In this document: positions 13,759 through 64,000 of the stretch, in pieces
How positions within the stretch are numbered: the stretch's first letter is position 1
How the letters are laid out: every line of letters begins with the position of its first letter
From: Cyanidioschyzon merolae
Lineage: Eukaryota
Length of the DNA stretch: 64,000 bases
Direction: 5' to 3' (one strand)
NCBI GenBank assembly: GCA_000091205.1
Contig: AP006499.2
The notes under the pieces: generated by a model
The model's database searches: none
What the model saw: only the letters and a program-made list of their open reading frames with translations
What the model was told of the DNA's origin: nothing
Made by a program: the position numbers and the translations under genes

Positions 13759-14415
13759 TTACGGCAACTGCAGTGCCCGAAGTCGTGCACTCAGATCGGC
13801 TTGCTCCTGTTGCAATCGTTTCCTCTCCTGGGCCTGAGCGAGGTCACGTTGTAAAAGTGGTAAAGTAGGGGCCGTTCCCAGCGCATGACTTAGCTCGAGG
13901 TTGTTCTCCTCTGCCGTTTGTCGAATAAGAAGAGCGACCTCATCCTCCTCGGGTGTCTGACTCGCAACCCCGGCGCTTACACGATCAAGTCCACTATTTA
14001 TGAGAACGTCGCGAACCTGGACGTCGTCCAAGCGATTCTCCAGGAGCTGAAGCGAACTCTCCAAGCGCTCCACGTCAAGCACGCGAATAGCGCTATCCAT
14101 GTCGGAGGCGAGAAGGCCCATTTCAGAGCCAATCTGGCCCAAGTCGCGCGCTGCTTTGAGACGTCCCACGACTGCGTCTAGACGAGCCGCCAGTCGCAGA
14201 TAGGTCGTGCGCTCTCTCGCTTTGCGAACAGCGCTCTCTGCAGAGACCACGCTCATCTCCGCGTTTCCCGACTTGAGCGCTGCCTTGAGCTGCTCCACGT
14301 ACCGCTCTCTCTCGCGTTGGCAACGGTTTGCTTGACGTCGCAAGTGTTTTTCCAAGAGAAGCAGCTTGAAAATATGCTCTTGGTATCTTTTTGAGGACGA
14401 CTGGGCGAGTCCCAT
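13759..14415 (-). CDS. CHMP1: ESCRT-III subunit CHMP1/Did2 (Snf7 family).
   Basis: 218 aa. Colinear with CHMP1: EKHL..Q...C.RE, MSVVSAESAVRKARE..YLRLAARLDAV, and a C-terminal MIM-like LSARLRALQ. Confidence 0.8.
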   Translation of the reverse strand: MGLAQSSSKRYQEHIFKLLLLEKHLRRQANRCQRERERYVEQLKAALKSGNAEMSVVSAESAVRKARERTTYLRLAARLDAVVGRLKAARDLGQIGSEMGLLASDMDSAIRVLDVERLESSLQLLENRLDDVQVRDVLINSGLDRVSAGVASQTPEEDEVALLIRQTAEENNLELSHALGTAPTLPLLQRDLAQAQERKRLQQEQADLSARLRALQLP

Positions 14416-15232
14416 GTTTTAGGAAACAACCAAGAAAAGTTGCAGGAGAAACAAATGAGCGCACACGTGTGCTGTCTCCGAACACCGCTCCGGTACCAGC
14501 CCCATCGTTTGCGAACGGCCGCCTCTGGACAGCAGCGGCAACGGACAGCAGCGGCTAGATGGAGCGCTAAGAATCGGCCTTAACTGAGCGCGTTGATTTT
14601 TTCGATGACAAAACGTTTCACATGGGCCATGGATCTCATATCGCGGGACGGATCATGGTAATCAAAAAACGTGTATCATACTGCCACACGCTACCTCCGA
14701 GTCCCATTACTTATACTTCCCTCGGATATACTGATGGTTTCGTATGTTCTATCGATCGCCGATTACCTGCCGTGAGCACCCGCCGTAGCGCGTATACCAC
14801 CGATACGGATGCTGCACGGAGACAGAACGGCGTTGCGATACCACTGAGGGCGTCGGATCGATGTGTTTTTATAGGACATGGAATCGGAATCCCTTGCCAT
14901 TCTGGGAGCTTGCCGCAGCGGGGAGCGATATACCAGAAGACCACCGCGACCAGGGCGACGCTAAGACGCAGCATACCCACTCCTTGTTCCAGAAGAAACT
15001 GCGTTGTGGACGAGTTGCTCGGGTTTCGCTAAAGCAACAGCCAATGGGGCGATCATGCAACACAGGCCCGATAGACTCGTCCGGCTCGCGGGACCTTCCG
15101 CCCCGGGGGTAAACTATCGGCAATAAAGAAAGCCTTCCCCATTTTAACTGTTATCGCACAGGGGGAAGCAATCGTAATTTCGTTGCCAGTTAACGATTCG
15201 TTTCTGTTCCTTGTTCTATGCGGTGCGGTTGA

Positions 15233-17116
15233 GCAGCGCACCTGGAGATCTGGCGGTCACGAGATCGCGAAAAATATCGCACCTACCGCTTCAACCTTAG
15301 TCGATACGAGGGTGACCAGGATATTTACACCTACGGGGCCGTGAAGTACCTCACGAATCTGAAGAACCATTTGACGATGAACCTTGAATGTTTCATGATA
15401 CGCGCCGTGTTTGCGCTTTACGCGGGTATCTCTTGCAAGGGGATATGGGCGATTATCAATGGCATCACGAACGGTCGCAGGTATGAAGATGAGGTCGCAT
15501 TCGTGGACATGAGGGTATCAAACGGCAGCACGAATGAAGCTTCTGTGATCCGTGCGGTTATACAAGAGCACCGTGCGGTACTGGGGTTGGCGAATCCAAC
15601 AGACAAGATATCAGCGTTGAAAAAAAGATAAGGAAAGATACTATCGCCTCGTCCTGCGCTATTTTGTGTTTCTGGACCGAGAACTCGAACGCAAGGCACA
15701 GGTGGAGCTAAGTGAGGAAAAAAATGAAGAGTGGGAGAGACGGAAGGCTGCGCTTCTGGGGAAGCGCTTCAACGTGGTTCCAATGTGCAACATCAAGTCA
15801 CATTTTATGACTATCGGCTCCGGTGTCCTCTACGGCATCATGAGGGAGATCAGTCCCGAGTTTGATGTTAGCAGGGAGGAGTTCTCCGGTGAAGTCCGGG
15901 AGACGTACTGGAAAAATATCTTCAATTTCAAACGTCTCAAAATGAGTAAACAAAAGGTATTCACTGGAATGATCGAAACCGATGGGTAGCCATATGTGTA
16001 CACTATCGGCGATTGAAGGCAGATCGTCCAGTTCCGCCCTCAGCTGCGCCCGTGACGAAGGATGCAGAAAACAAAGAGGCGGATTCTGCGACGCAGGAGG
16101 TCGAGGATTACGACCTTGTCGTTGACGCGGGGAAGGATGATGATGAGAAGAATGCGGATCCTGTGATGCAGAAAGTGCAGGATAACGACTTTGTCGTTGG
16201 CGCGGACCCTGGGAATACGAATATCATGAACATTGCAGTACCCAGGCGTGGGGAAGATGGTACTGACGGTAATTTACGTCAGAAAGACATGCGTTTTTTC
16301 AGGTTCTCGAGAGCGAGATACTATCGGGAATCGGGAATCATGAATGCGAGGAAACAATTCGAGATATGGAATGCAGGAGTGAAGGATCACCTGGAAGCGA
16401 TGAGCGAGGTGACTAGCCGAGGAGAGGACTTTAAAGCTTTTCGGAAATTCATAGAAGTTCGCATGGCGCACTGGGATGCGCTATGAGAGGAGTATACCAA
16501 GCCCCGGTGGGCTCGTCTGCGTATGAATCTGTACTCTGGGAGGCAGCGGGCATTTGCCAACTTTTCCAATGAGTTGAGTGCCCTGAAGGACGACGAGGGT
16601 CAGAGGCTCGTTGTAGCATACGGAGCAGGGCACTGGAAGACCCAAAAAGGGACTACGGCAGCTCCAACAACAAGAACGTACAAAGAGTGTGCGCAGCGTT
16701 TGGTTACAGTATCGATCGTTGAGTTCCGAACGTCCTATACACACCATGAGCTAGGGTGTATACTTCAGAAGGTGGAGATGGAAAAGTGCCAGAGGAGCCC
16801 TGAGGATATGAAAAAGTACGGACCGCTGACGGAGGAGCAAATGGAAAGGAGAGCGAAATTTCGTGGACTACTTGCATTAGTGAGTACAACCACCAACGGC
16901 ACGAAACGTACGGATTTTGTGAACCGAGACTTTAACGCCGCTGTCAATAAAAGGAGATGTGCGGTGCTGGAAAGTAGACCTTCAGAGCTGACAAGAGAGA
17001 ACTTTGTTGGACAATCTCGAAAATATGAACTATACGAGAAAAAATTGGAAGCAGTAGTGGGTGGCCGGTCCAAAAAGACCGGGAGGCGACTGCACCTCGG
17101 GAAGCGTCTTGTCTAG
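15233..17116 (+). pseudogene. TnpB/Fanzor-like RNA-guided RuvC nuclease gene, copy A. It is disrupted by two frame changes and one in-frame TGA, so is treated as a decayed gene.
   Basis: Conceptual reading across the frame 2 -> frame 0 -> frame 2 segments gives about 628 aa. Motifs are Ruv[20 protein letters not shown], RuvC-II region QRLVVAYGAGHWK, a degenerate zinc-finger region VEFRTSYTHHELGC and RuvC-III FVNRDFNAAVNKRR. The first frame change lies in an A7 run (15618-15624). There is an in-frame TGA at 16484-16486. Confidence 0.6.
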
Positions 17117-17190
17117 GGCGGGCTTCTCGCCACTACTGTACACCGGGCGCGACTCGTGCGGAACGCTCACTCACTCTCTCTGGAACCTGT
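15255..17190 (+). mobile_element. Fanzor/TnpB-like element, copy A (about 1.9 kb). It ends 75 bp upstream of the TFB5 start codon.
   Basis: An imperfect inverted 11-12-mer bounds it: cacgagatcgcg at 15258, and cgcgactcgtg at 17153-17163 on the other strand. The ends are homologous to the ends of copy D. Confidence 0.5.
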
Positions 17191-17454
17191 ATGGTTCATG
17201 CGACCAAAGGGTACCTGGTGCGCTGTGATGTACCGATGAAACAACTGCTGCTTCACTTGGATCGAGAAGAACACTTCATCATCTGTGATCTCGATGAAAA
17301 ACACCTTTTCGTGAAGGAGGACGCGTTGTCGCTGATCCAGCAGAGCGTGGAAGCGCTCTACGATGAAGTATACTATGGGCCCCAAGAGCCCGGACCCCGA
17401 CGGCAGCGGGCAGGCGCTTCTACTGGAACCGGAACGCAAGAGTCGCTAGACTAG
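17191..17454 (+). CDS. GTF2H5: General transcription factor IIH subunit 5 (p8/TTDA/Tfb5).
   Basis: MVHATKGYLVRCDVPMKQLLLHLDREEHFIICDLDEKHLFVK aligns with human p8 [25 protein letters not shown]...FIIQDIDDTHVFV. Confidence 0.75.
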   Translation: MVHATKGYLVRCDVPMKQLLLHLDREEHFIICDLDEKHLFVKEDALSLIQQSVEALYDEVYYGPQEPGPRRQRAGASTGTGTQESLD

Positions 17455-17788
17455 AAGCGCGGCCCCTGTTGGACGAACGAGGCTCCTCGGCAGCGAAGCA
17501 CGCGTTGTCGCAACGAGCCGTAAGACTTTTCGTGGGACACCAGTCAGGTGAAGTATGCGCAGCGCCAGTGCCCCCAAACCAGCGCCTAGTTATGAGCCCG
17601 CAGCACTGCATAGCCTGCGAGCATTCAATCAATGGACGCAGGGTCTTAGTTTTGAGCTCGTCTTCCCTGAGCCTTGGAACGGACTAGGGCGCCGACCTGC
17701 GGTCGCCTCGAAGAGACAGCCACCTGGCCAATCGGTAGAGATGGTGGATTCCCCATATACTCGCATACGTTGAACGCAGTTGTAGTCG

Positions 17789-20700
17789 CTAGGACTGCTT
17801 CGAATGGAGCGCAACTGGGTTCATTTTCAGCTGAGCGCCCAACAACTCAGATGTTAGCGCGGTACGCTCTGCCTCATACGGAGACGGGACGGAGACGCGG
17901 AGCAGGCGTAACATGCCGACGACAGCCCAGAGACGACTCCGTAGATTGCGCTTCGAAGACTCGCTCCAGAGAGAAGATTGCCCATAGATTGCCTGTTGAA
18001 TTCGAGCGCTTTCTCGAGTGCATGCGCACAGGTCCATTCGCTGTAAAGCCACTGCTGCATGGCAGAAAACGCGGAATCGCCTCCGAGACTGGGCACAGCG
18101 ATCCTTCAGCTGGACGGAGGTCGCCGCGCTGGTTCCCATCCTACTACTTCCACTGCTGCCACCGTGGGCATCATCTTGCGCATTGGATATCGTGGGTAGT
18201 GCTGCGGTTATCTGTGCAAAACCCGAATCCGCTGGTGCCGCAGCGGACTGCGGTTCGTTGCCCATTGGAGCATCGCCCAGCCGATAGTTGGTGCCGGCTT
18301 GGTAGCGTCTCAAGTTCCGTTGCATGAGCTGGTGGCAAAGTGCTTGCCACAGGCGACCCGGTTGATGAACCCATGAGACTGGGCACAAGCGAGTCAGGAA
18401 ACCTATAGGCAGCTCGAGGCCGGCAATCAGGAGACCTGCACCCCACTGAGCGCCCGACAGATTCACGATGCCGACTGACTGGCCAACCGCAGTGCGACCG
18501 AGCACCTCCACAAGGACAACCTGTATGACAGCGGAACCGAAAACAATGCATAGGAAGAGACGTGCGCGACCGATACCTTCGAAAACATGCCGTTCGGCAA
18601 TGCGTCGACTGTTCAGCTCTGATACAAGTTGCAGGAATACAAATGTGTTAAAGATAAATCCATTTCGCTGTAGCGTCTGACCACCGCAAGGATCCGAAGA
18701 CGTAGAAACCGCGTAACAAGGAATATGGAACAATGGAACCGTCACGAATAACAACGTTATCATCACCGCAAGTTGATACAGCGCGATGCCGAGCATGTTC
18801 CGCACCATGGCGGGCGTTATGAGCGGCGCGTTCCGGCCTTGTGGTGGCTGCTGCATGAGTGCGCTACGTGGTGCCTCTGTGGCCAGGGCGAGCGCTCCAA
18901 ATGAATCCATCACTACATTGACCCATAGAAGGGGCACTGTGGACAGCGGTAGCGTCATGCCGGCACACGCGCTGAACAGGTCGAGCGTCACCGCAACAAT
19001 ATTCACAGTCAGCTGAAACTGTAAAAATTTGCGAATGTTCTCCAACACATTCCGACCCCAGAGTACCGCAGCAACAATAGACCCGAGTCGATCGTCCAAC
19101 AGCACCACATCAGCAGCCTCTTTCGCGAGCTCTGTACCAGACACACCCATTCCGAAGCCTATATCGGCTTCACGCAGGGCAGGCGCGTCGTTGCTTCCGT
19201 CCCCGGTTACCGCCACGACTTGTTCGAGCGCTCGAAAAAGTTGCACCAATTCGAGCTTATCTGCCGGGGTTGCACGTGCGAGCACGCGCATTCGCATCGA
19301 AACATTTTGCTGAACGGCACGAGGTAGTTGGCGAAATGCGGCCGCATCCCATACCAGCTGCACTGGGGAGGATCCCGGCTCTAGCAGCTCTGCCGCCTGT
19401 GCAATCTGCGTCGCCGTTTGCACACTATCTCCAGTGACCATACGAACGAAGACACCGGCCTGTTGCAGTGCCCGCACCGACGCGGCGGTATCGGGTCGTA
19501 GCGGATCGCTCATTCCGAAAATGCCCAGCAGAATCAATTCCGTTTCAGGCGGTTCGTTCACACCCGGGAGGTTCCCTGTCTCTGCCGGTTGCTGTTGGTC
19601 CCAGAACGCAACCAGGAGCATTCTGAGTCCCTGCTCCGCAAAAGCTTCCATCGCACTGCGGTACGCGTTGCGCTTGGACCAACTCATTCGCGTCAATGCT
19701 CCGGTACGGCAATTCATTTCGAGGACACAACGCTCGAGCAGCTGATCGGGGGCTCCTTTCACGTGCAAGCGTTCCAAACGACCGTCTGGTGCGAGCTGCT
19801 CAATGCTGCACATTTGCTTGCGAGTGCTGTTGAAGAGGTAGACACGACGGAGCGAGGAAGCGGCGCGCAGCTCCCGATACGAAATTCCCATGCGATGCAG
19901 CAGCTCCAAGAGCGCACATTCCGTGCGGTTGCCAATGTACTCCACAGTGCCATTCTGTTGATCACGCAAGTCAGCTTGGCTATTGATGGCGATACAACTA
20001 GCTAACAAGCGAAGATAGATGGGTGAAATGGTGCGCCGCTGCAGCAGATCGCTCAGCGAGCCCGCCGGTAGCGCAGCCTCCGTTACTCGGAGCTGATTCC
20101 AAGTCATTGTACCAGTTTTGTCAATGTTGAGCTGCGTTGCAGAGCCCATCGTTTCGCAGGCTTCCAGACGACGCACCAGTATGTTCTCTTTCATCATTTG
20201 ACGCATGGCAAAGGCCAGACTCAGCACGACGGCAAGCGGGAGTCCCTCGGGGATGGCGACAACCGCGATCGCTATCGCGGCAGTGATACTCTCCGTGAGT
20301 TTCATAATAGGCCATGAGCCGCTCCGAATGGAATCTACCAACCAGCGAATAAAGAGCACGCCAAACACGAGGAACGCTAGACCCAGTCCAATGTAACCGA
20401 TGGAGCGGGCGAGACGGTTCAGTCGAACCTGGAGTGGCGTCTGTGGTGGCGTTGGGCGCAGGCTTGTCAACAGCTGGCCCCAGACTGAGTTCATGCCCAC
20501 TGCAACAGTGAGCATGGTACCGAATCCACTCGTAACGATGGTTCCCGATAGCACGAAAATGTCCGCTTCTTCATGTACCGATGGTGGAGCAGGCGATACG
20601 TCGTCGCCATCTGCATGCAGCTGTATAGTAGCAGTCGTCTTAGCAGCATTACTTGCCGCGGCGGCGGCGGCAGCAGCAGCAGGCCTATCGAATGCACCTG

Positions 20701-29339: not shown

Positions 29340-31300
29340 CCCTCAGCAGTGCCTTGCGCTTGCCGAGCATCCAGGTCTTTCGCTCGTCGCCAGTGATTTT
29401 TTCGTGGCAAGGCTTCAACGTTTCAAGTCAACGCCTGAGCAGAGTACTTTGTGATTCCGTTGGATGTTCGCTGGACACAGAGCCCATAGATGCTCCTGAA
29501 GCACGGAGCGTTTGCGGATGTTGATGGCGGTGTTCAAGTCTCCGTGCAGAATATGCGTTCTCGCGTGGTGACTGCTAGACGCATACCATAACATGCTTCT
29601 AATTTTCGATTGTAACGCCATCTGCCGCTAGCTGAGCCTCCCAACAGCAAACTTGTGCATCCCGTGATGTTTCACACTTTGGTTTCCTTTCTACAACAGG
29701 AAGCACCTGTGCTCCCAACGCATGAATGCCGCCCAGAATGCATCCATGGGGATCGTACGGAATCGATTCCTGCACTCGTTGGGTGCTCTCGTCGATGAAG
29801 CGGCAGTGCAGCGCTCGTGCCCTACAACACGTCCAGCGCTACAGCCTATCGCCAAACAGCACGACTTGTGCGTCATTTCCTGTTCCGATTCTTCGGTAAC
29901 GTTTCCGCATGCCCGCTTGTTGCTGCTGCCGCCATGGTACCGATCCCTTTCGCGATCCTAGAGCGCTCACGTATACTCCTGACAGAGAACGTACGCGTGA
30001 GCTGTTTGGATGTAGATGCACGTCCTGATTGGAGTGTACAGGGTATCTCGACCGTGTCGATAAAGCGTTCAGGGAGTCTAGAGCGATCCTGGCGCTTCAT
30101 GACACGCGCTGGAATGGCTCCTGGTGGACATCATACCGAACCGCCAATGATACCGAGCCTGGAAAAATTGAACAGATCAGTCTGCTTTCTTTCTGAAGTG
30201 TTCGCCCTCGTCCTCTATGTTCAGAGGCAAGGCGACGGCCATGATGCCCTTCAAAACGGGATCCACGCGCACCATGAAGAGTCTCTCTTCATCTACCTTG
30301 ATCAATTCCAAATGAGTATCTTTGCTAGACTCAGATCTTGGTTTCACAACATACATGCAGTGTGAAATGCTGTCAATCTCCATAGACCAGTGAGCGTCGT
30401 TCCATCTATTTCCTGTAAACGAGAAGCCTTGAACGAGCTCCGCCAATACAGTTTGCAGCGTAGCTCGATCATTTCATACTGTCTCGCAGAGAGCAGCCTT
30501 TTCTTCGCTTTCTATCCTACTCGGCCAGGTGGCGTGAGCGCAATAACCTAACACAATATCCATTTCTTTCTCGGGATTCAGACACAATAAGTGGACGATG
30601 CGGCCTGACCTCGCCTTTTCAATGTCTGCATGTATCTATTCTTGCTTAAGAACATTTTCGCCACCGTCGTGAGCACACAATCGGACCGAAACGCGCATTT
30701 CCTCTCCCGTCCGCGCACGCCTTCAAACCCTGCAAAGCAGATCAGAGCTGGTGAAGATCGAGAGCAAATTTTCAAAGAATGGAATTACGAATGCGAATGA
30801 CTCGTCTATGAATCCGTGAGCGCCTAAAAGGTGCTCCGCAACTGGGAAGCCGCCTTCGATTGGATTGAACTAGGGAGAAGAGGTTGAAATGAAGGGCGAC
30901 GCATCGCCAACCTCAGCCGCATACTCCTTGATCGCATTTGATTGATCGGAAGCGATGTTGTCTACGAGCAGAACAGCAGAATGTGCGAAGCAGAAGGTGT
31001 CATGAAAAATGCGTCGACAAAGGATGCGCTATCGAACAATGCTGCCCGTTGATATGCGAAGCAGAAGGTGTCATGAAAGATGCGTCGACAAAGGATGCGC
31101 CATCGAACAATGCTGCCCGTTGATATACGAAGCAGAAGGTGTCATGAAAAATGCGTCGACAAAGGATGCGCTATCGAACTATCCTGCCCGTTGATATACG
31201 AAGCAGAAGGTGTCATGAAAGATGCGTCGACAAAGGATGCGCTATCGAACTATCCTGCCCGTTGATCTACGAGGGAGAAGCATGTTGTGCGCTGCTGCAA
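29340..31300 (-). mobile_element. Fanzor/TnpB-like element, copy D (about 2 kb, minus strand). It is decayed, and its N-terminal region contains the 71-bp tandem array.
   Basis: Minus-strand ORF fragments in different frames each align to copy A. These are RuvC-I VRVDPVLKGIMAVALP (30177..30446), FIDTVEI...LQSGR (29873..30100), the RuvC-II/ZF region LAIGCSAGRVVGHERCTAASSTRAPNEC (29691..29876), and SSSHHARTHILHGDLNTAINIRKRSVLQEH for ZF remnant plus RuvC-III (29415..29621). The 3-prime tail is homologous to copy A. Confidence 0.55.
30985..31268. repeat. Tandem array of 4 copies of a 71-bp unit (gcgaagcagaaggtgtcatgaaaaatgcgtcgacaaaggatgcgctatcgaacaatgctgcccgttgatat), with degenerate flanks.
   Basis: Unit starts at 30985, 31056, 31127 and 31198. 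The track ORFs 30938.., 31009.., 31080.. and 31151.. are the same repeat read in frame. Confidence 0.9.
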
Positions 31301-51022: not shown

Positions 51023-53674
51023 TTCGCGGAATAAATTACGAAATAGGCGTAAACAGATGCGAACACCGGGTTTTGAATGGTGCAAGCGATGCGGAGTATG
51101 GACTTTTGCCGCCATGCACTCGCGAGCGGGATATTGCATCTCGGGACTCAGCGCTGGGTATGTAGTCTCGCGGCGGAACTGAATCCTCTGCACCCTTACC
51201 TATGAGGTCCGTACGCCGATACACGGAGGCCAATACGAGACATTCTTCGGAGGTCTTCGTATTTGTCGCAGTCTTGAGCGGGAGCATCGAGGCAGTGGCG
51301 GATGTAGCACGTGTTGACGGCGAACGATCGGCACAAGATTTAGAACACGTACTCGCTCGCCAGCAATCGTTGCCAATATGATGTGTGGAACATTCCCGTT
51401 TCTATGACCAGGCATGCGAGAAACATTCCAGCAAAGCGATTACAGCCCTAGACGCCGAAACCAGCAACTGGGCGAAGGCATCCAAGCTGCGAGCAACGTC
51501 GATTTCAGCGTGGCAGCTGATCGATGTTGCATTTGGAGGGCGAGAGCGCTCATGCACCAGCAGCGCGGCTACCTGGAGCCCTGCTGAGCAAGAATATCTG
51601 CTGCTTCAGCCTTGGATAAACGTTCTTCTGCGAGTTTTCCACTCCTTTTGTATGCATTGACGGTTACAGGGTTGCTTGATCAATGCTGCAGCCCGGGATG
51701 TTCCTCCGAGGCCGATTCGCTCTGTCCACAGAGAATCCAGACTGGTAAAGTGCGTGCATTCCGGACGAGTGCATGCATCTCGCACCTTCACGATACATTG
51801 CAGATGGAAATTCTTTTCCATCTTCGTTTCTCGTCGTCTTTGCAGAGTGCACTGCAGGCTGAATGCTTCGAACATGCACCTGGGAAACCAGGGCGCCCTC
51901 TTTAATGCTGTTCGTATCATGCATTCACCGGACACATTTGCAAGGGATCTCGTTGCGTTTCGGTTTCCGTGGACCCACGGATTACATCTGCGCGAAAATA
52001 GTGTGCTATTTGCGATTCGGTAGCGCTTTCGAAGAGCTTGCAGAGCAGTCTGGATCGAAATCTTGAATGCTAGGTTTTAAGGGTGTCAGGTCTGTGAATC
52101 TGAACTGTATGCGGTGTACTCCGGGAGACGCAGCTCGGTCGTCATCGCCACGCAGAATGCAACGATGAGTGTGATATGTTTTGTAAGAGTCTGCTCTCGA
52201 GGAAAAAGGAGGACATGGGAACTATGCTGCTGCTCCTGATGTCTCTGGTCGTTAACCACTGTGAATATTAGGTTCCAGATAAAGCCAGTTTGCTTGCGGA
52301 AAATGTTCCTGTTTGCGCAGCAAGCGCAGCTCACTTGGAGCGATCGTGCTGAAGCTTGCTCTCAAGGTATGCTGCGGAGCGGATACGAGTGTCGATCGCT
52401 CCCTCTCCGATCAAGGCTGCTACCGTTCAAGCAATATCTCGGTATACTCTGGAATATTGAATAATGGAGCACCAGCATTTTCCACCGAATGTATCCGAAT
52501 ATCATTACCGATATCTACTTTTATGGGACGTTCGAGCATTCTTTGATTGCTGACCGTACCGCACAAGCGTCTGGCTCAAGGCGGGATTCCAACGCCTTCT
52601 CGCCTGATAACTAAATTTTCCATTGAGAAGCTCTAGCGTTTCTGCTCCATGTCCATTAAGAGTACTACACGAGTACCTCGCGAGCCCGCTCGACACAAGG
52701 CTGTTGGACGCTCCCGATGCACGAGACATTTCCGGATGTTGGTTGAGGCATACAGGTCTCCGTGCAGAATGCCTCTGCCTATGTTTGCCTGCGGAATCGC
52801 ATCATTGCAAGACGCTCTTTTTCGATTGCCTCGCCAGTTGGCGTTCGATCAGCTTACCGTTCACCATCTCGTGCATGCGACTATTCACTACGCTCTTCTT
52901 CTGTGCACGGTTCAGCGTACAGCCATGCTTGTGAAGCTTGCGTATCGTCCTGAATATATCGATGGAAATTGTCCGGCATGGATTGGTGCACTCTTTGGAC
53001 GCTCTCGTTGAATGAGCAGGTGCGCATCCAGTTTGACAAGTGCTGTATTGGATGCAAGGAACGTTCAGGATAAGCATGCGAAGAAGCGTGCTTCACTCAT
53101 CGAAGGACTTGCGAATACCTGATTTGAACAAGTAAGGCCGTTTCATCCAATTACCATGAAACATATCAGTTCCTTTCACCTCTTTTTCCAACCCACAAGA
53201 TGCATTCCTTTTGTAAAATACCCGCTAGAAAAGCAAACAAAACAAAAGTGACTCGCATACCCAGGTGTTCCACACGTATCTGTGCTGCGTCTATCGAGCG
53301 ACTACCAGAGCGCTGCATCTCCAAACGTACCCAGCATCCGATCTCCGCTGCGAACAAGTCGGGGCTGCTGTTGGTGACGTTCGTACTGCTTGTGGCGGTG
53401 GCGGTGGCAGTGGCTTCCGCTCTTAGAAAGTGCTCGCTTCTCTGGTTTCTGACAGTACATGTGTCTTCGGTGGACTCTGGTTTGTTTCGTCATCGATCTT
53501 ACAAAGTAAAAACTCAGGTGTCGGGTCCGGAAGCGACAGGAACGTTGTCGGCGGCTCTACCAACAGCCGAAGCAGGGGTAGTGAACCGAACTCCGCTAGG
53601 ACTCAAGTTTTGCTCCCTCTGACAATTTAGAACTGACGTTGCAGAAAGGACCAGGGCTTCATTCGTTGCCCACC

Positions 53675-62089: not shown

Positions 62090-63177
62090 AGATTAAAATG
62101 GATTAGTGTGCGGGTCGCTGCATTCCTGCCATTCGTCCCTTTTCCGAACGATTCCTAGATGCACATTCGCGACTGTCGAACTGCTGCACTCAAGGGTTGC
62201 GGATTCGTACGTACTTTTACGGTTCTGGAGCGTCTCTCGGAAGTGACTCCTTCGACTTCGTGCCGCTGGAATTCGTGACATCACAGCGATCGTGATGATT
62301 CGCGACGATTTCAAAAAACGATTTGGAAAATAACGGACTTCATGATCCATTTCATACGTGCAAGCTTGCACGCGTCCCCGTCTCTTACGTATATCATGCT
62401 CAAATCACGCATTCTTCAAACACTCGATCCTTCTGTTTCATTGCAACTCGCGGACGTAGCGATTCACGCCTCTGGATTGACGATTCTAGTCCTTGCTCTG
62501 GATTGTGCTTCGACGCCAGATGCGTGTAATCAACCGCAATTCGCGATATCGCGCAGATATGCGCCGGGTGTTTTCATTCGAAGAAATGAAGAATCTAAGA
62601 GAAAGCTATGGACGTGAAAGTCGGGTATCCCGGAGAACTGCCATCGTCGAATGGAGGAAAAAACTAAAAAGATCCTTTTTTCGTCGAGGTTAGAGCGAAG
62701 AAGAGCAAGTGACGAAGAAGACGGTGACGGTGAGAGATAGACGAGAAAAGTTCATCGTCCCACGCGACGATGACAAGACTGCAGTGGCACTGAGGGCGTG
62801 AGTACTAGGGATCCCTGCATCGGTGCGTTCAACCAGAGGCAATGCACGCAAAGGGTTCGTGGACCGCGGGTCAAACGCTGCTATCAATATCGGACGATGT
62901 GCGGTGCTGGAGACGAGGCCCGAGAAGCTGAAGCGATCCAAATTCGTGGGGCAGCCTTTGAACCTTGACGTGTACAAAGACAAACTGAAACCGAAAGCGG
63001 GAGTCCGGTCAAGAAAGGCTGGGAGTCGTCTGCGCTCTGGTGTGTACTATCCTAAATGGTCGTGGAACATTTTTTGCTTCGCCGATGACATACATGAAAA
63101 AATGGTCTCGGAGGTTTCCGTCTGTTCTGTTTGCGTAGAACAGTGTCTTAGACTCGAACTTTAGTCATCGCAGCGAT
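62090..63177 (+). mobile_element. Fanzor/TnpB-like element, copy B. This is an internal-deletion derivative (about 1.1 kb) lying just downstream of PSMD13.
   Basis: It retains the N-terminal-region homologue (..AQITHSSNTRSFCFIATRGRSDSRLWIDD), a zinc-finger-region remnant (EEMKNLRESYGRESRV), and RuvC-III plus C-terminus (GFVDRGSNAAINIGRCAVLETRPEKLKRSKFVGQP; ORF 62823..63164). It lacks RuvC-I/II. Inverted GCGATCGC-containing ends: cagcgatcgtgatgatt at 62288, and agtcatcgcagcgatcgctt at 63158-63177. Confidence 0.55.
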
Positions 63178-64000
63178 CGCTTCGAGTGCGTAATGTGACA
63201 CCGTTTTGCATATCGGGAGCGAGGACGGATCGGAAATCGTCGACCTGCTCTCCTTCCTGAATTTTCCTTCCGGTGCTTGCTTCGTTATTGAAAACATGGT
63301 GTTGCACAAAATCTGCAATCCATTAGAGCAGCGTACGCTTAAACATATATCAGACAGAAAACTCGTCGATGGAACTGTCCGGAACAAGCCCCTGAGCGAG
63401 AAGCAAGAGATCGGGCGTAGAAGCGGAGGCGTGTATCGAGTTGAGCCTTCGTTACTCACCACGGAGATGCCCCAGGCGATGAAGCGAGCCTTTGCGCGCC
63501 ACAGAATGACCTCCGGAAGAGGATACATGGTTGACATCTGGTGACTCCTGACCACAGCCGGGTATCGCTGCCGTGCAGGGCTCTCCGATGCTGTCTACAG
63601 AATGGATGAAAATGGCAAGCAGGTTGTACATCACAACTTTTGCCTGCGTGTGATATGCGTCGACAACATCGGCAACTGGCGACACGGGGACTTGAATGCC
63701 GCCATCAGCATTCTTCGACCGCTATCAGCAGAGCTGGAGAAACTGGAAAGATGCGCTTACTTAGAGCCAGTGCTTAGAGAGCGAGAGGAACATGAAGCAG
63801 TCGCAAAAACGCCTACAAAGGATGGTATTGACGTCGATCGGAAGAGACCTAAATTTACGATGCACGACAACGTTGGCTGAGTGCACCCTTCAACTTCATT
63901 GTGACAAGAGTGCAATCATAATCCCCGGATGCGCGCTTGATATCGGGAATCAGGGAAGAAACCGTCGCTGCTCACCGGAATGTATACCAGGGGGCACTAC

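Follow-up and report, generated by a model that had tools for sequence, protein, structure and literature searches.

The DNA we analyzed is a stretch of 64,000 nucleotides (hereafter the window) of Cyanidioschyzon merolae 10D nuclear DNA. Two of the proteins it encodes are exact matches to the C. merolae 10D proteins BAM82229.1 (TFB5) and BAM82224.1, which lie on a chromosome of 1,232,258 bp. The neighbors in the window are unremarkable genes of a eukaryote, namely TFB5, a P-type ATPase, Sec24 and UTP15. Between a gene of 218 aa and TFB5, which are divergently transcribed, lies a Fanzor remnant that we call copy A. It is one of four remnants of the Fanzor1 family within the 64 kb. Self-comparison of 14501–17800 against the window found no second copy at the nucleotide level; the other remnants are visible only by protein or profile comparison. 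The parts of the element and the flanking gene are as follows.

14590–15266, + strand: 5′ non-coding module of a CMe-1A-like element, with 66–69% identity to what precedes the Fanzor ORF in over 20 other copies
15266–15267, no strand: junction of an internal deletion, about 656 bp missing; the full-length copies L032, L092, L081 and L055 hold 656 alignment columns here
15269–15619, + strand: Fanzor1 ORF remnant, segment 1, from about residue 144 onward of an 809-aa reference (tblastn and profile matches)
15620–15626, + strand: A7 run, frameshift 1, one A more than the family consensus A6
15621–15986, + strand: ORF remnant, segment 2 (frame translation and homology matches)
15984–15986, + strand: GGG in place of the family's GGAG, frameshift 2, a 1-bp deletion; TAG follows at 15987–15989
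15986–16483, + strand: ORF remnant, segment 3, with two degenerate 75-bp (25-aa) repeat units at about 16056–16205 and the RuvC-I Asp codon at 16205–16207
16484–16486, + strand: in-frame TGA from TGG (Trp); the Trp is invariant in homologues and the codon is TGG in other copies
16487–17116, + strand: ORF remnant, segment 4, with the RuvC-II Glu codon at 16721–16723, the RuvC-III Asp codon at 16928–16930 and the stop codon TAG at 17114–17116
17116–17170, + strand: 3′-terminal non-coding end, with a hairpin at 17116–17131, the box ACTACTGTACACC at 17132–17144 and the degenerate remnant of a terminal hairpin; the 3′ end lies at about 17145–17170 (alignment of 40–49 copies)
17191–17454, + strand: flanking host gene TFB5, outside the element (Pfam Tfb5, E = 4e-24; BAM82229.1)

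Three-frame translation of 15000–17300 bears out the pattern described in the earlier note, three open segments with a single TGA. One frame is open over 15233–15631 and ends in ...SALKKR*, the next is open over 15621–15989 (KKDKERYY...IETDG*), and the first is open again over 15950–17116, where the TGA at 16484–16486 is the sole interruption. The earlier note had put the first switch in an A7 homopolymer at 15618–15624. The run is there, but it occupies 15620–15626, with 15617 as the first base of ttgaaaaaaagataag. The second shift does fall within 15950–15990, as had been said, and its precise site is the GGG at 15984–15986, directly before the TAG at 15987–15989.

When one A is removed and one base is added at the second shift, a frame of 628 codons, stop included, can indeed be rebuilt. 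Its first 12 codons (15233–15268) are without Fanzor homology, however, and it has no start codon; Fanzor homology begins at 15267–15269. The TGA takes the place of a Trp conserved without exception across 14 aligned homologues (HWDALW/EEYTKPRW). Since homologues read through this position with Trp, the remark that no intron could remove the TGA is moot.

Fanzor1 identity and the element CMe-1A

The rebuilt protein has about 80 relatives at 60–78% identity, all of them from metagenomes and tagged at most as PF26935/DUF8286; a Pfam scan of the rebuilt protein found no family. Among 177,635 PDB sequences, the family profile, which includes the rebuilt copy A, matches only PpFz1 from Parasitella (E = 4.7e-14) and SpuFz1 from Spizellomyces (E = 2.7e-8), with the RuvC-II and RuvC-III motifs aligned to those of the two proteins. 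The AlphaFold model of the full-length relative P0062 (pLDDT 81.2) matches SpuFz1, GtFz1 and PpFz1 with E = 6e-17 to 1e-14 and TM scores of 0.52–0.71 over about 670–800 columns, and copy A corresponds to this protein only from residue ~142 onward. The catalytic D/E/D codons are kept in copy A and stand in invariant columns: D325 (GADPG), E497 and D566. Copy A belongs to Fanzor1 by sequence and fold, and the call of a Fanzor gene in the earlier note was correct.

Fanzor1 proteins are eukaryotic TnpB-type RuvC endonucleases. The characterized members are guided by an omega-RNA that is transcribed from the element's end (PMC10432273, PMC11423790), and by homology an intact CMe-1A Fanzor1 would likewise be an omega-RNA-guided RuvC endonuclease. 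With SpuFz1, GtFz1 and PpFz1 (Saito 2023, PMC10432273; Xu 2024, PMC11423790; PDB 8GKH, 9CEU, 9CER, 9CF0) the C. merolae family has three things in common: the full-length fold, as seen in the family member P0062; the RuvC D/E/D motifs DPG, EFRTS and RDxNAA; and a 3′ end rich in hairpins, where omega-RNAs lie in the characterized systems. It differs in that sequence identity is just 11–17%, with the C. merolae family known from sequence and a model, and copy A no longer codes for a protein; within the Fanzor1 family this copy is a pseudogene rather than a functional member.

Bacterial TnpB (IS200/IS605/IS607) and Cas12f have the RuvC fold in common with the family, and Cas12f chains are the next-best structural matches. 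They are far more distant (TM 0.2–0.34), and the host of the C. merolae protein is a eukaryote. The C. merolae protein is also longer, has an N-terminal extension and lacks a CxxC zinc-ribbon motif in the TNB region.

The family is already known and not new. Bao and Jurka described one Fanzor1 family in C. merolae, CMe-1, whose element CMe-1A is about 3 kb long, has no TIRs and exists in about 150 copies, with an identity to the consensus of about 80% (Bao & Jurka 2013, Mob DNA 4:12; PMC3627910). The copies studied here come from the same organism, are multi-copy, encode a TnpB-like RuvC protein and are 79–86% identical in pairs. The element that we rebuilt is about 3.2 kb long with a 5′ module of about 680 bp (14590–15266) common to more than 20 copies, and while aligning copy ends we noticed, in passing, no TIRs. 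The 5′ 635 bp of CMe-1A are identical to a separate repeat, TE-N2_CMe (PMC3627910); our 5′ module is probably this part, a match by description and not by alignment to the consensus. The stretch from 14590 to about 17165 is one CMe-1A copy, an identity that likewise comes from matching descriptions. In contrast to CMe-1A as described, copy A is internally deleted, frameshifted and nonsense-bearing. The two accounts also differ on intact copies, some of which were stated to exist in the genome (PMC3627910), whereas we found none among about 50 metagenomic copies. The 75-bp array is a further variable feature of the family: it has four units in one copy (L022), and the unit count differs from copy to copy.

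The missing 5′ coding part and the age of copy A

Full-length relatives reach about 120–160 residues further N-terminally than copy A. In the AlphaFold model of P0062, the beta-strand and the long helices with which the fold begins fall into the missing part. One relative (L001) begins with MKKKVH...RKKQK, which resembles a nuclear localization signal. A homology search with E up to 50 for the missing N-terminal region returned nothing but noise anywhere in the window. The reason becomes apparent in comparison with other copies. A metagenome scan yielded 532 confirmed stretches, from which 80 loci were kept, representing about 50 distinct copies. Homology to the 5′ module starts at 14590–14599, and over 20 copies have this module ahead of their ORF. 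Between the module and the point equal to 15267, these copies hold about 656 extra bp, which contain the ATG and about 143 codons. Copy A is therefore not “nearly intact”, as had been claimed: even after repair of the three small lesions the start codon and about 143 N-terminal residues are missing, and the 3′-terminal hairpin is gone as well.

When was this part lost? At the resolution of the alignment, an identical junction is found in a paralogous locus (L034/L046/L048) with different flanking genes. Probably, then, copy A comes from a non-autonomous derivative of the element in which the deletion had already occurred. Inheritance is unproven, since a neighbor-joining tree of the copies does not group the two deletion-bearing loci: copy A is not sister to L034. 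One could also argue that the element was still full-length and coding when it inserted, and that the 5′ coding part of copy A disappeared at the locus only afterwards, in which case the junction in L034 would have arisen by recurrent deletion or by gene conversion. The position of copy A in the tree is in line with this, full-length copies (L016/L045 and L019, about 84–85% identity) are the nearest to its ORF body, and an excess of synonymous private changes, described below, hints at a period of coding selection. Against a late deletion stands the identical junction at two loci with unrelated flanks, and no direct repeats are evident at the deletion boundaries that could drive recurrence. 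The tree itself is star-like with long terminal branches and offers little resolution. We consider a late deletion possible, but clearly the less likely of the two histories, and continue to favor inheritance from a deleted derivative.

The age of the copy can be judged from natural populations. Many JGI metagenome samples have yielded independent assemblies of the orthologous locus, in the order 218-aa gene, remnant, TFB5, ATPase. The TFB5 protein occurs in 51 blocks of the metagenome index; we inspected 23 contigs and compared 10 loci. The Fanzor insertion is present in every sampled allele. The 10 orthologous alleles differ from the window at 7–24 of 1876 remnant positions, a divergence of about 0.4–1.3%. 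Among the 11 alleles, variable sites make up 2.4% of the remnant, 2.1% of the adjacent non-coding DNA and 0.8–0.9% of the flanking genes. In the metagenome annotation, the prokaryotic gene caller divided the orthologous loci into matching fragments of 84, 107, 164 and 197 aa.

Compared with three full-length copies, copy A carries 102 private substitutions (5.5%), 36 of them synonymous and 66 non-synonymous. Under a neutral simulation one would expect 27.4 ± 4.3 synonymous changes (P about 0.03) and 3.5 stops, of which one is observed (P = 0.13). Among the alleles there are 18 synonymous and 28 non-synonymous differences, with an enrichment of third codon positions. Allele polymorphisms are also clustered, for example at 16453–16471. 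The synonymous excess means either that the lineage was partly under selection in the past or that gene conversion imports changes from other copies. Hence, the branch leading to copy A has evolved neutrally for the most part and bears a modest imprint either of coding constraint in the past or of gene conversion. The codon-position and dN/dS tests are mildly off neutral and decisive neither way.

Copy A is several times older than the split between the strains. That it is a young pseudogene, as one reading in the earlier note had it, finds no support, given lesions that predate a strain divergence of about 1% and private substitutions of about 5.5% that look mostly neutral. For the family as a whole, Bao and Jurka argued that divergence arose largely while lineages were still coding (PMC3627910). 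Our copies differ from each other by about 16% in the ORF bodies and by about 32% in the 5′ module, which suggests the same for much of the divergence of the family.

The 3′ end and the neighboring TFB5 gene

The 3′ terminus of the family is conserved. A hairpin stands right after the stop codon and is followed by the box CCACTACTGTACAC and then by a terminal 10-bp hairpin, which exists in two variants (CGTCGTTCGA-CTT-TCGAACGGCG or AACGTTTTTC-TTTT-GAAAGACGTT). Homology among copies ends after the terminal hairpin. In copy A this hairpin is destroyed, with a minimum free energy of −6.2 (z = +2.3) compared to a median of −16 kcal/mol in other copies.

By analogy with the characterized systems, the obvious candidate site for an omega-RNA is the 3′ end, which is rich in hairpins and overlaps the last part of the ORF, and the structured 3′ region of the family may be the omega-RNA scaffold. 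RNAalifold found no meaningful consensus structure in the 3′ end of 40 copies. In three hand-drawn helices (h1–h3) 81% of cells pair, and covariation is no better than in shuffles; we therefore claim no omega-RNA structure. The conserved 3′-terminal hairpin region of the family is described here for the first time and is the place to seek an omega-RNA. An intact copy or a reconstructed consensus copy could serve to test a red-algal, possibly heat-stable Fanzor.

The 3′ end of the element in the window is just about 20–45 bp away from the ATG of TFB5 at 17191, and of the 2.8 kb that separate the two divergent genes the element takes up about 2.6 kb. This raises the question of whether the remnant has been co-opted, either as a source of non-coding RNA or as promoter or 5′ UTR for TFB5, and perhaps also for the 218-aa gene. 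The presence of the insertion in all sampled alleles and the mild excess of synonymous and third-position changes would be compatible with such a role. Yet the nucleotide diversity of the remnant is at the intergenic level, 2.5 times that of the neighboring genes. The region 14000–17700 has no Rfam match at E up to 1, and the conserved hairpin of the family is precisely what copy A has lost. We regard exaptation as improbable. Similarly slim is the chance that this dead copy is still relevant at all, be it through co-option by TFB5 or because the 656-bp deletion at two loci marks a non-autonomous derivative mobilized in trans. If the latter were true, it would demonstrate directly that Fanzor elements without an ORF can spread with the help of proteins from other copies.

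The three small lesions

Most copies of the family have an in-frame A6 (TTGAAAAAAGAT) at the first site; at the second the consensus is GAT GGA GTA and at the third TGG. Where copy A has TGA, 70 of the 72 other copy sequences have TGG and the remaining two TAG. Among 74 copy sequences, GGG is confined to copy A and the orthologue L047, and the TGA is likewise limited to these two. A7 is found beyond copy A in two unrelated loci (L064 and L049/L050), and the A run is therefore a genuine slippage hotspot in vivo. The earlier note had suggested a comparison with other copies to see whether the lesions are shared or private; GGG and TGA turn out to be private to the locus, while A7 is not.

A-rich heptamers are classic slippage sites. 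It is conceivable, then, that the disruptions are programmed: slippage on A7, a second frameshift, and read-through or reassignment of TGA could together yield a functional Fanzor1. Such a scheme would fit the A-rich heptamer at the first shift, the recurrence of A7 in two other loci, and the Trp position of the TGA, which is what one would expect if TGA coded for Trp. But the family consensus is an in-frame A6, so the frameshift is no feature of the family, and GGG and TGA are private to the locus of copy A. The other Trp codons of the same ORF are TGG and the long host ORFs in the window are without in-frame TGA, hence the genetic code is standard. Because the lesions depart from an in-frame family consensus and the code is standard, and with the start codon and the N-terminal domain absent, we reject programmed recoding, to which we give practically no credence. 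TGA as part of a variant genetic code is out for the same reasons, as the long host ORFs are free of in-frame TGA and this TGA is private to the locus.

The other reading in the earlier note was an intact gene masked by homopolymer and base-call errors. Indeed, two of the three lesions change the length by a single base, and one of these lies inside the A7 run. The earlier note had proposed inspecting raw reads; as a surrogate we used the 10 assemblies of the locus from 10 samples. A7, GGG and TGA are identical to the window in 10 of 10 orthologous alleles. Because these alleles were assembled independently and have other differences, sequencing or assembly error is excluded. The C. merolae 10D genome is, moreover, a finished, gap-free sequence (PMC1955436), the second lesion is an A lost between Gs (GGAG), a 1-bp deletion without any change in homopolymer run length, and repair would still leave the ATG and about 143 N-terminal codons absent; the probability of a hidden intact gene is negligible. 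The three lesions are real and older than the divergence of the strains.

The alternative of a pseudogene, which the earlier note had also offered, is correct. We consider it very likely that copy A is a fixed, non-autonomous, decayed Fanzor1 (CMe-1A) pseudogene without nuclease function, and we infer that it is silent, i.e., unexpressed. Copy A, which is unable to give rise to the nuclease, belonged to, or turned into, a deletion derivative without the ~656 bp that hold the start codon and the coding sequence for about 143 N-terminal residues. Slippage then added an A (A6 to A7), one base was lost (GGAG to GGG) and a nonsense change arose (TGG to TGA). The 3′-terminal hairpin of the family was lost as well. 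Fixed in natural populations and evolving at about the intergenic rate, copy A is a molecular fossil.

The locus hides no active RNA-guided nuclease, and the fitting annotation is a Fanzor1 (CMe-1A) pseudogene. As a finding copy A is ordinary, and it matters little in itself. The hot-spring metagenomes give population-level evidence of an old Fanzor1 family in decay: all of the ~50 sampled copies are disrupted, with 1–13 disruptions per copy and not a single intact copy among them. Relative to the family, copy A with its three small lesions is about average or better.

Decay of the open reading frame across family copies

None of the about 50 distinct CMe-1A-like copies from hot-spring metagenomes (L018-L097) retains an uninterrupted Fanzor1 open reading frame; each carries between 1 and 13 stops or frameshifts. 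Some CMe-1A copies are reported to be intact in strain 10D (Bao and Jurka 2013, PMC3627910).

The expansion from A6 to A7 that makes the first frameshift of copy A, the decayed Fanzor1 pseudogene of the window, also occurs at the site equal to 15620-15626 in L064 and in L049/L050. Because A7 was gained in at least two other, unrelated copies, this A run is a recurrent slippage hotspot.

Repeat, terminus and probable insertion

Immediately 5' of the RuvC-I motif, the Fanzor1 reading frame contains a 75-bp tandem repeat, which encodes an acidic 25-aa unit ('ATQEVEDNDLVVDA.KHE..KEA') and differs in unit number between family copies. The family protein P0001 has four units, as does L022.

Window 16056-16205: repeat in copy A, two units, degenerate
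L022 3286-3586: repeat in L022, four units
Window 17116-17170: family 3' terminus in copy A, also compared at the 3' ends of L001, L015 and L018-L097
L001 400-3422: stretch of about 3 kb that codes for a protein with a reverse-transcriptase domain (Pfam RVT_1)

Two elements mark the 3' terminus of the family: first the conserved box CCACTACTGTACAC, and after it a terminal 10-bp hairpin that exists in two differing sequence versions and past which homology between copies stops. The ends of IS200/IS605 elements and Helitrons carry subterminal hairpins and in this respect resemble the box and terminal hairpin of the CMe-1A family. The layout may also be relevant to how CMe-1A transposes, a mechanism that is unclassified. 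Incidentally to aligning the copies, rather than in a dedicated search, we noticed no inverted repeats at their ends.

In L001, the RVT_1 segment splits the Fanzor part from sequence that in L015 precedes the copy. This segment resembles a retroelement that has inserted into a copy of CMe-1A.

Further relics and the genes flanking copy A

Together with copy A, three additional remnants matching the family profile bring the 64-kb window to four Fanzor1-family relics.

29418-30386 (-): Fanzor1-like remnant
52636-53092 (-): Fanzor1-like remnant
62802-63161 (+): Fanzor1-like remnant
63602-63880 (+): 92-aa reading frame containing HGDLNAAISILR, which resembles the RuvC-III motif RDxNAAxNI

The three remnants (E-values from 1e-12 to 3e-5, protein-level identity 25-50%) cover C-terminal RuvC parts only and are far more decayed than copy A. 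Since the family profile does not detect the 92-aa reading frame (E > 1), its RuvC-III-like string may be due to chance or a very old relic.

14415 (-): ATG of the 218-aa gene
14416-17190: intergenic region from which the 218-aa gene and TFB5 are transcribed divergently
17191: ATG of TFB5

The copy A element (about 14590-17165) fills this intergenic region almost entirely. Only about 20-45 bp separate its 3' end from the start codon of TFB5, and hence the relic may contain the promoter or 5' UTR of that gene.
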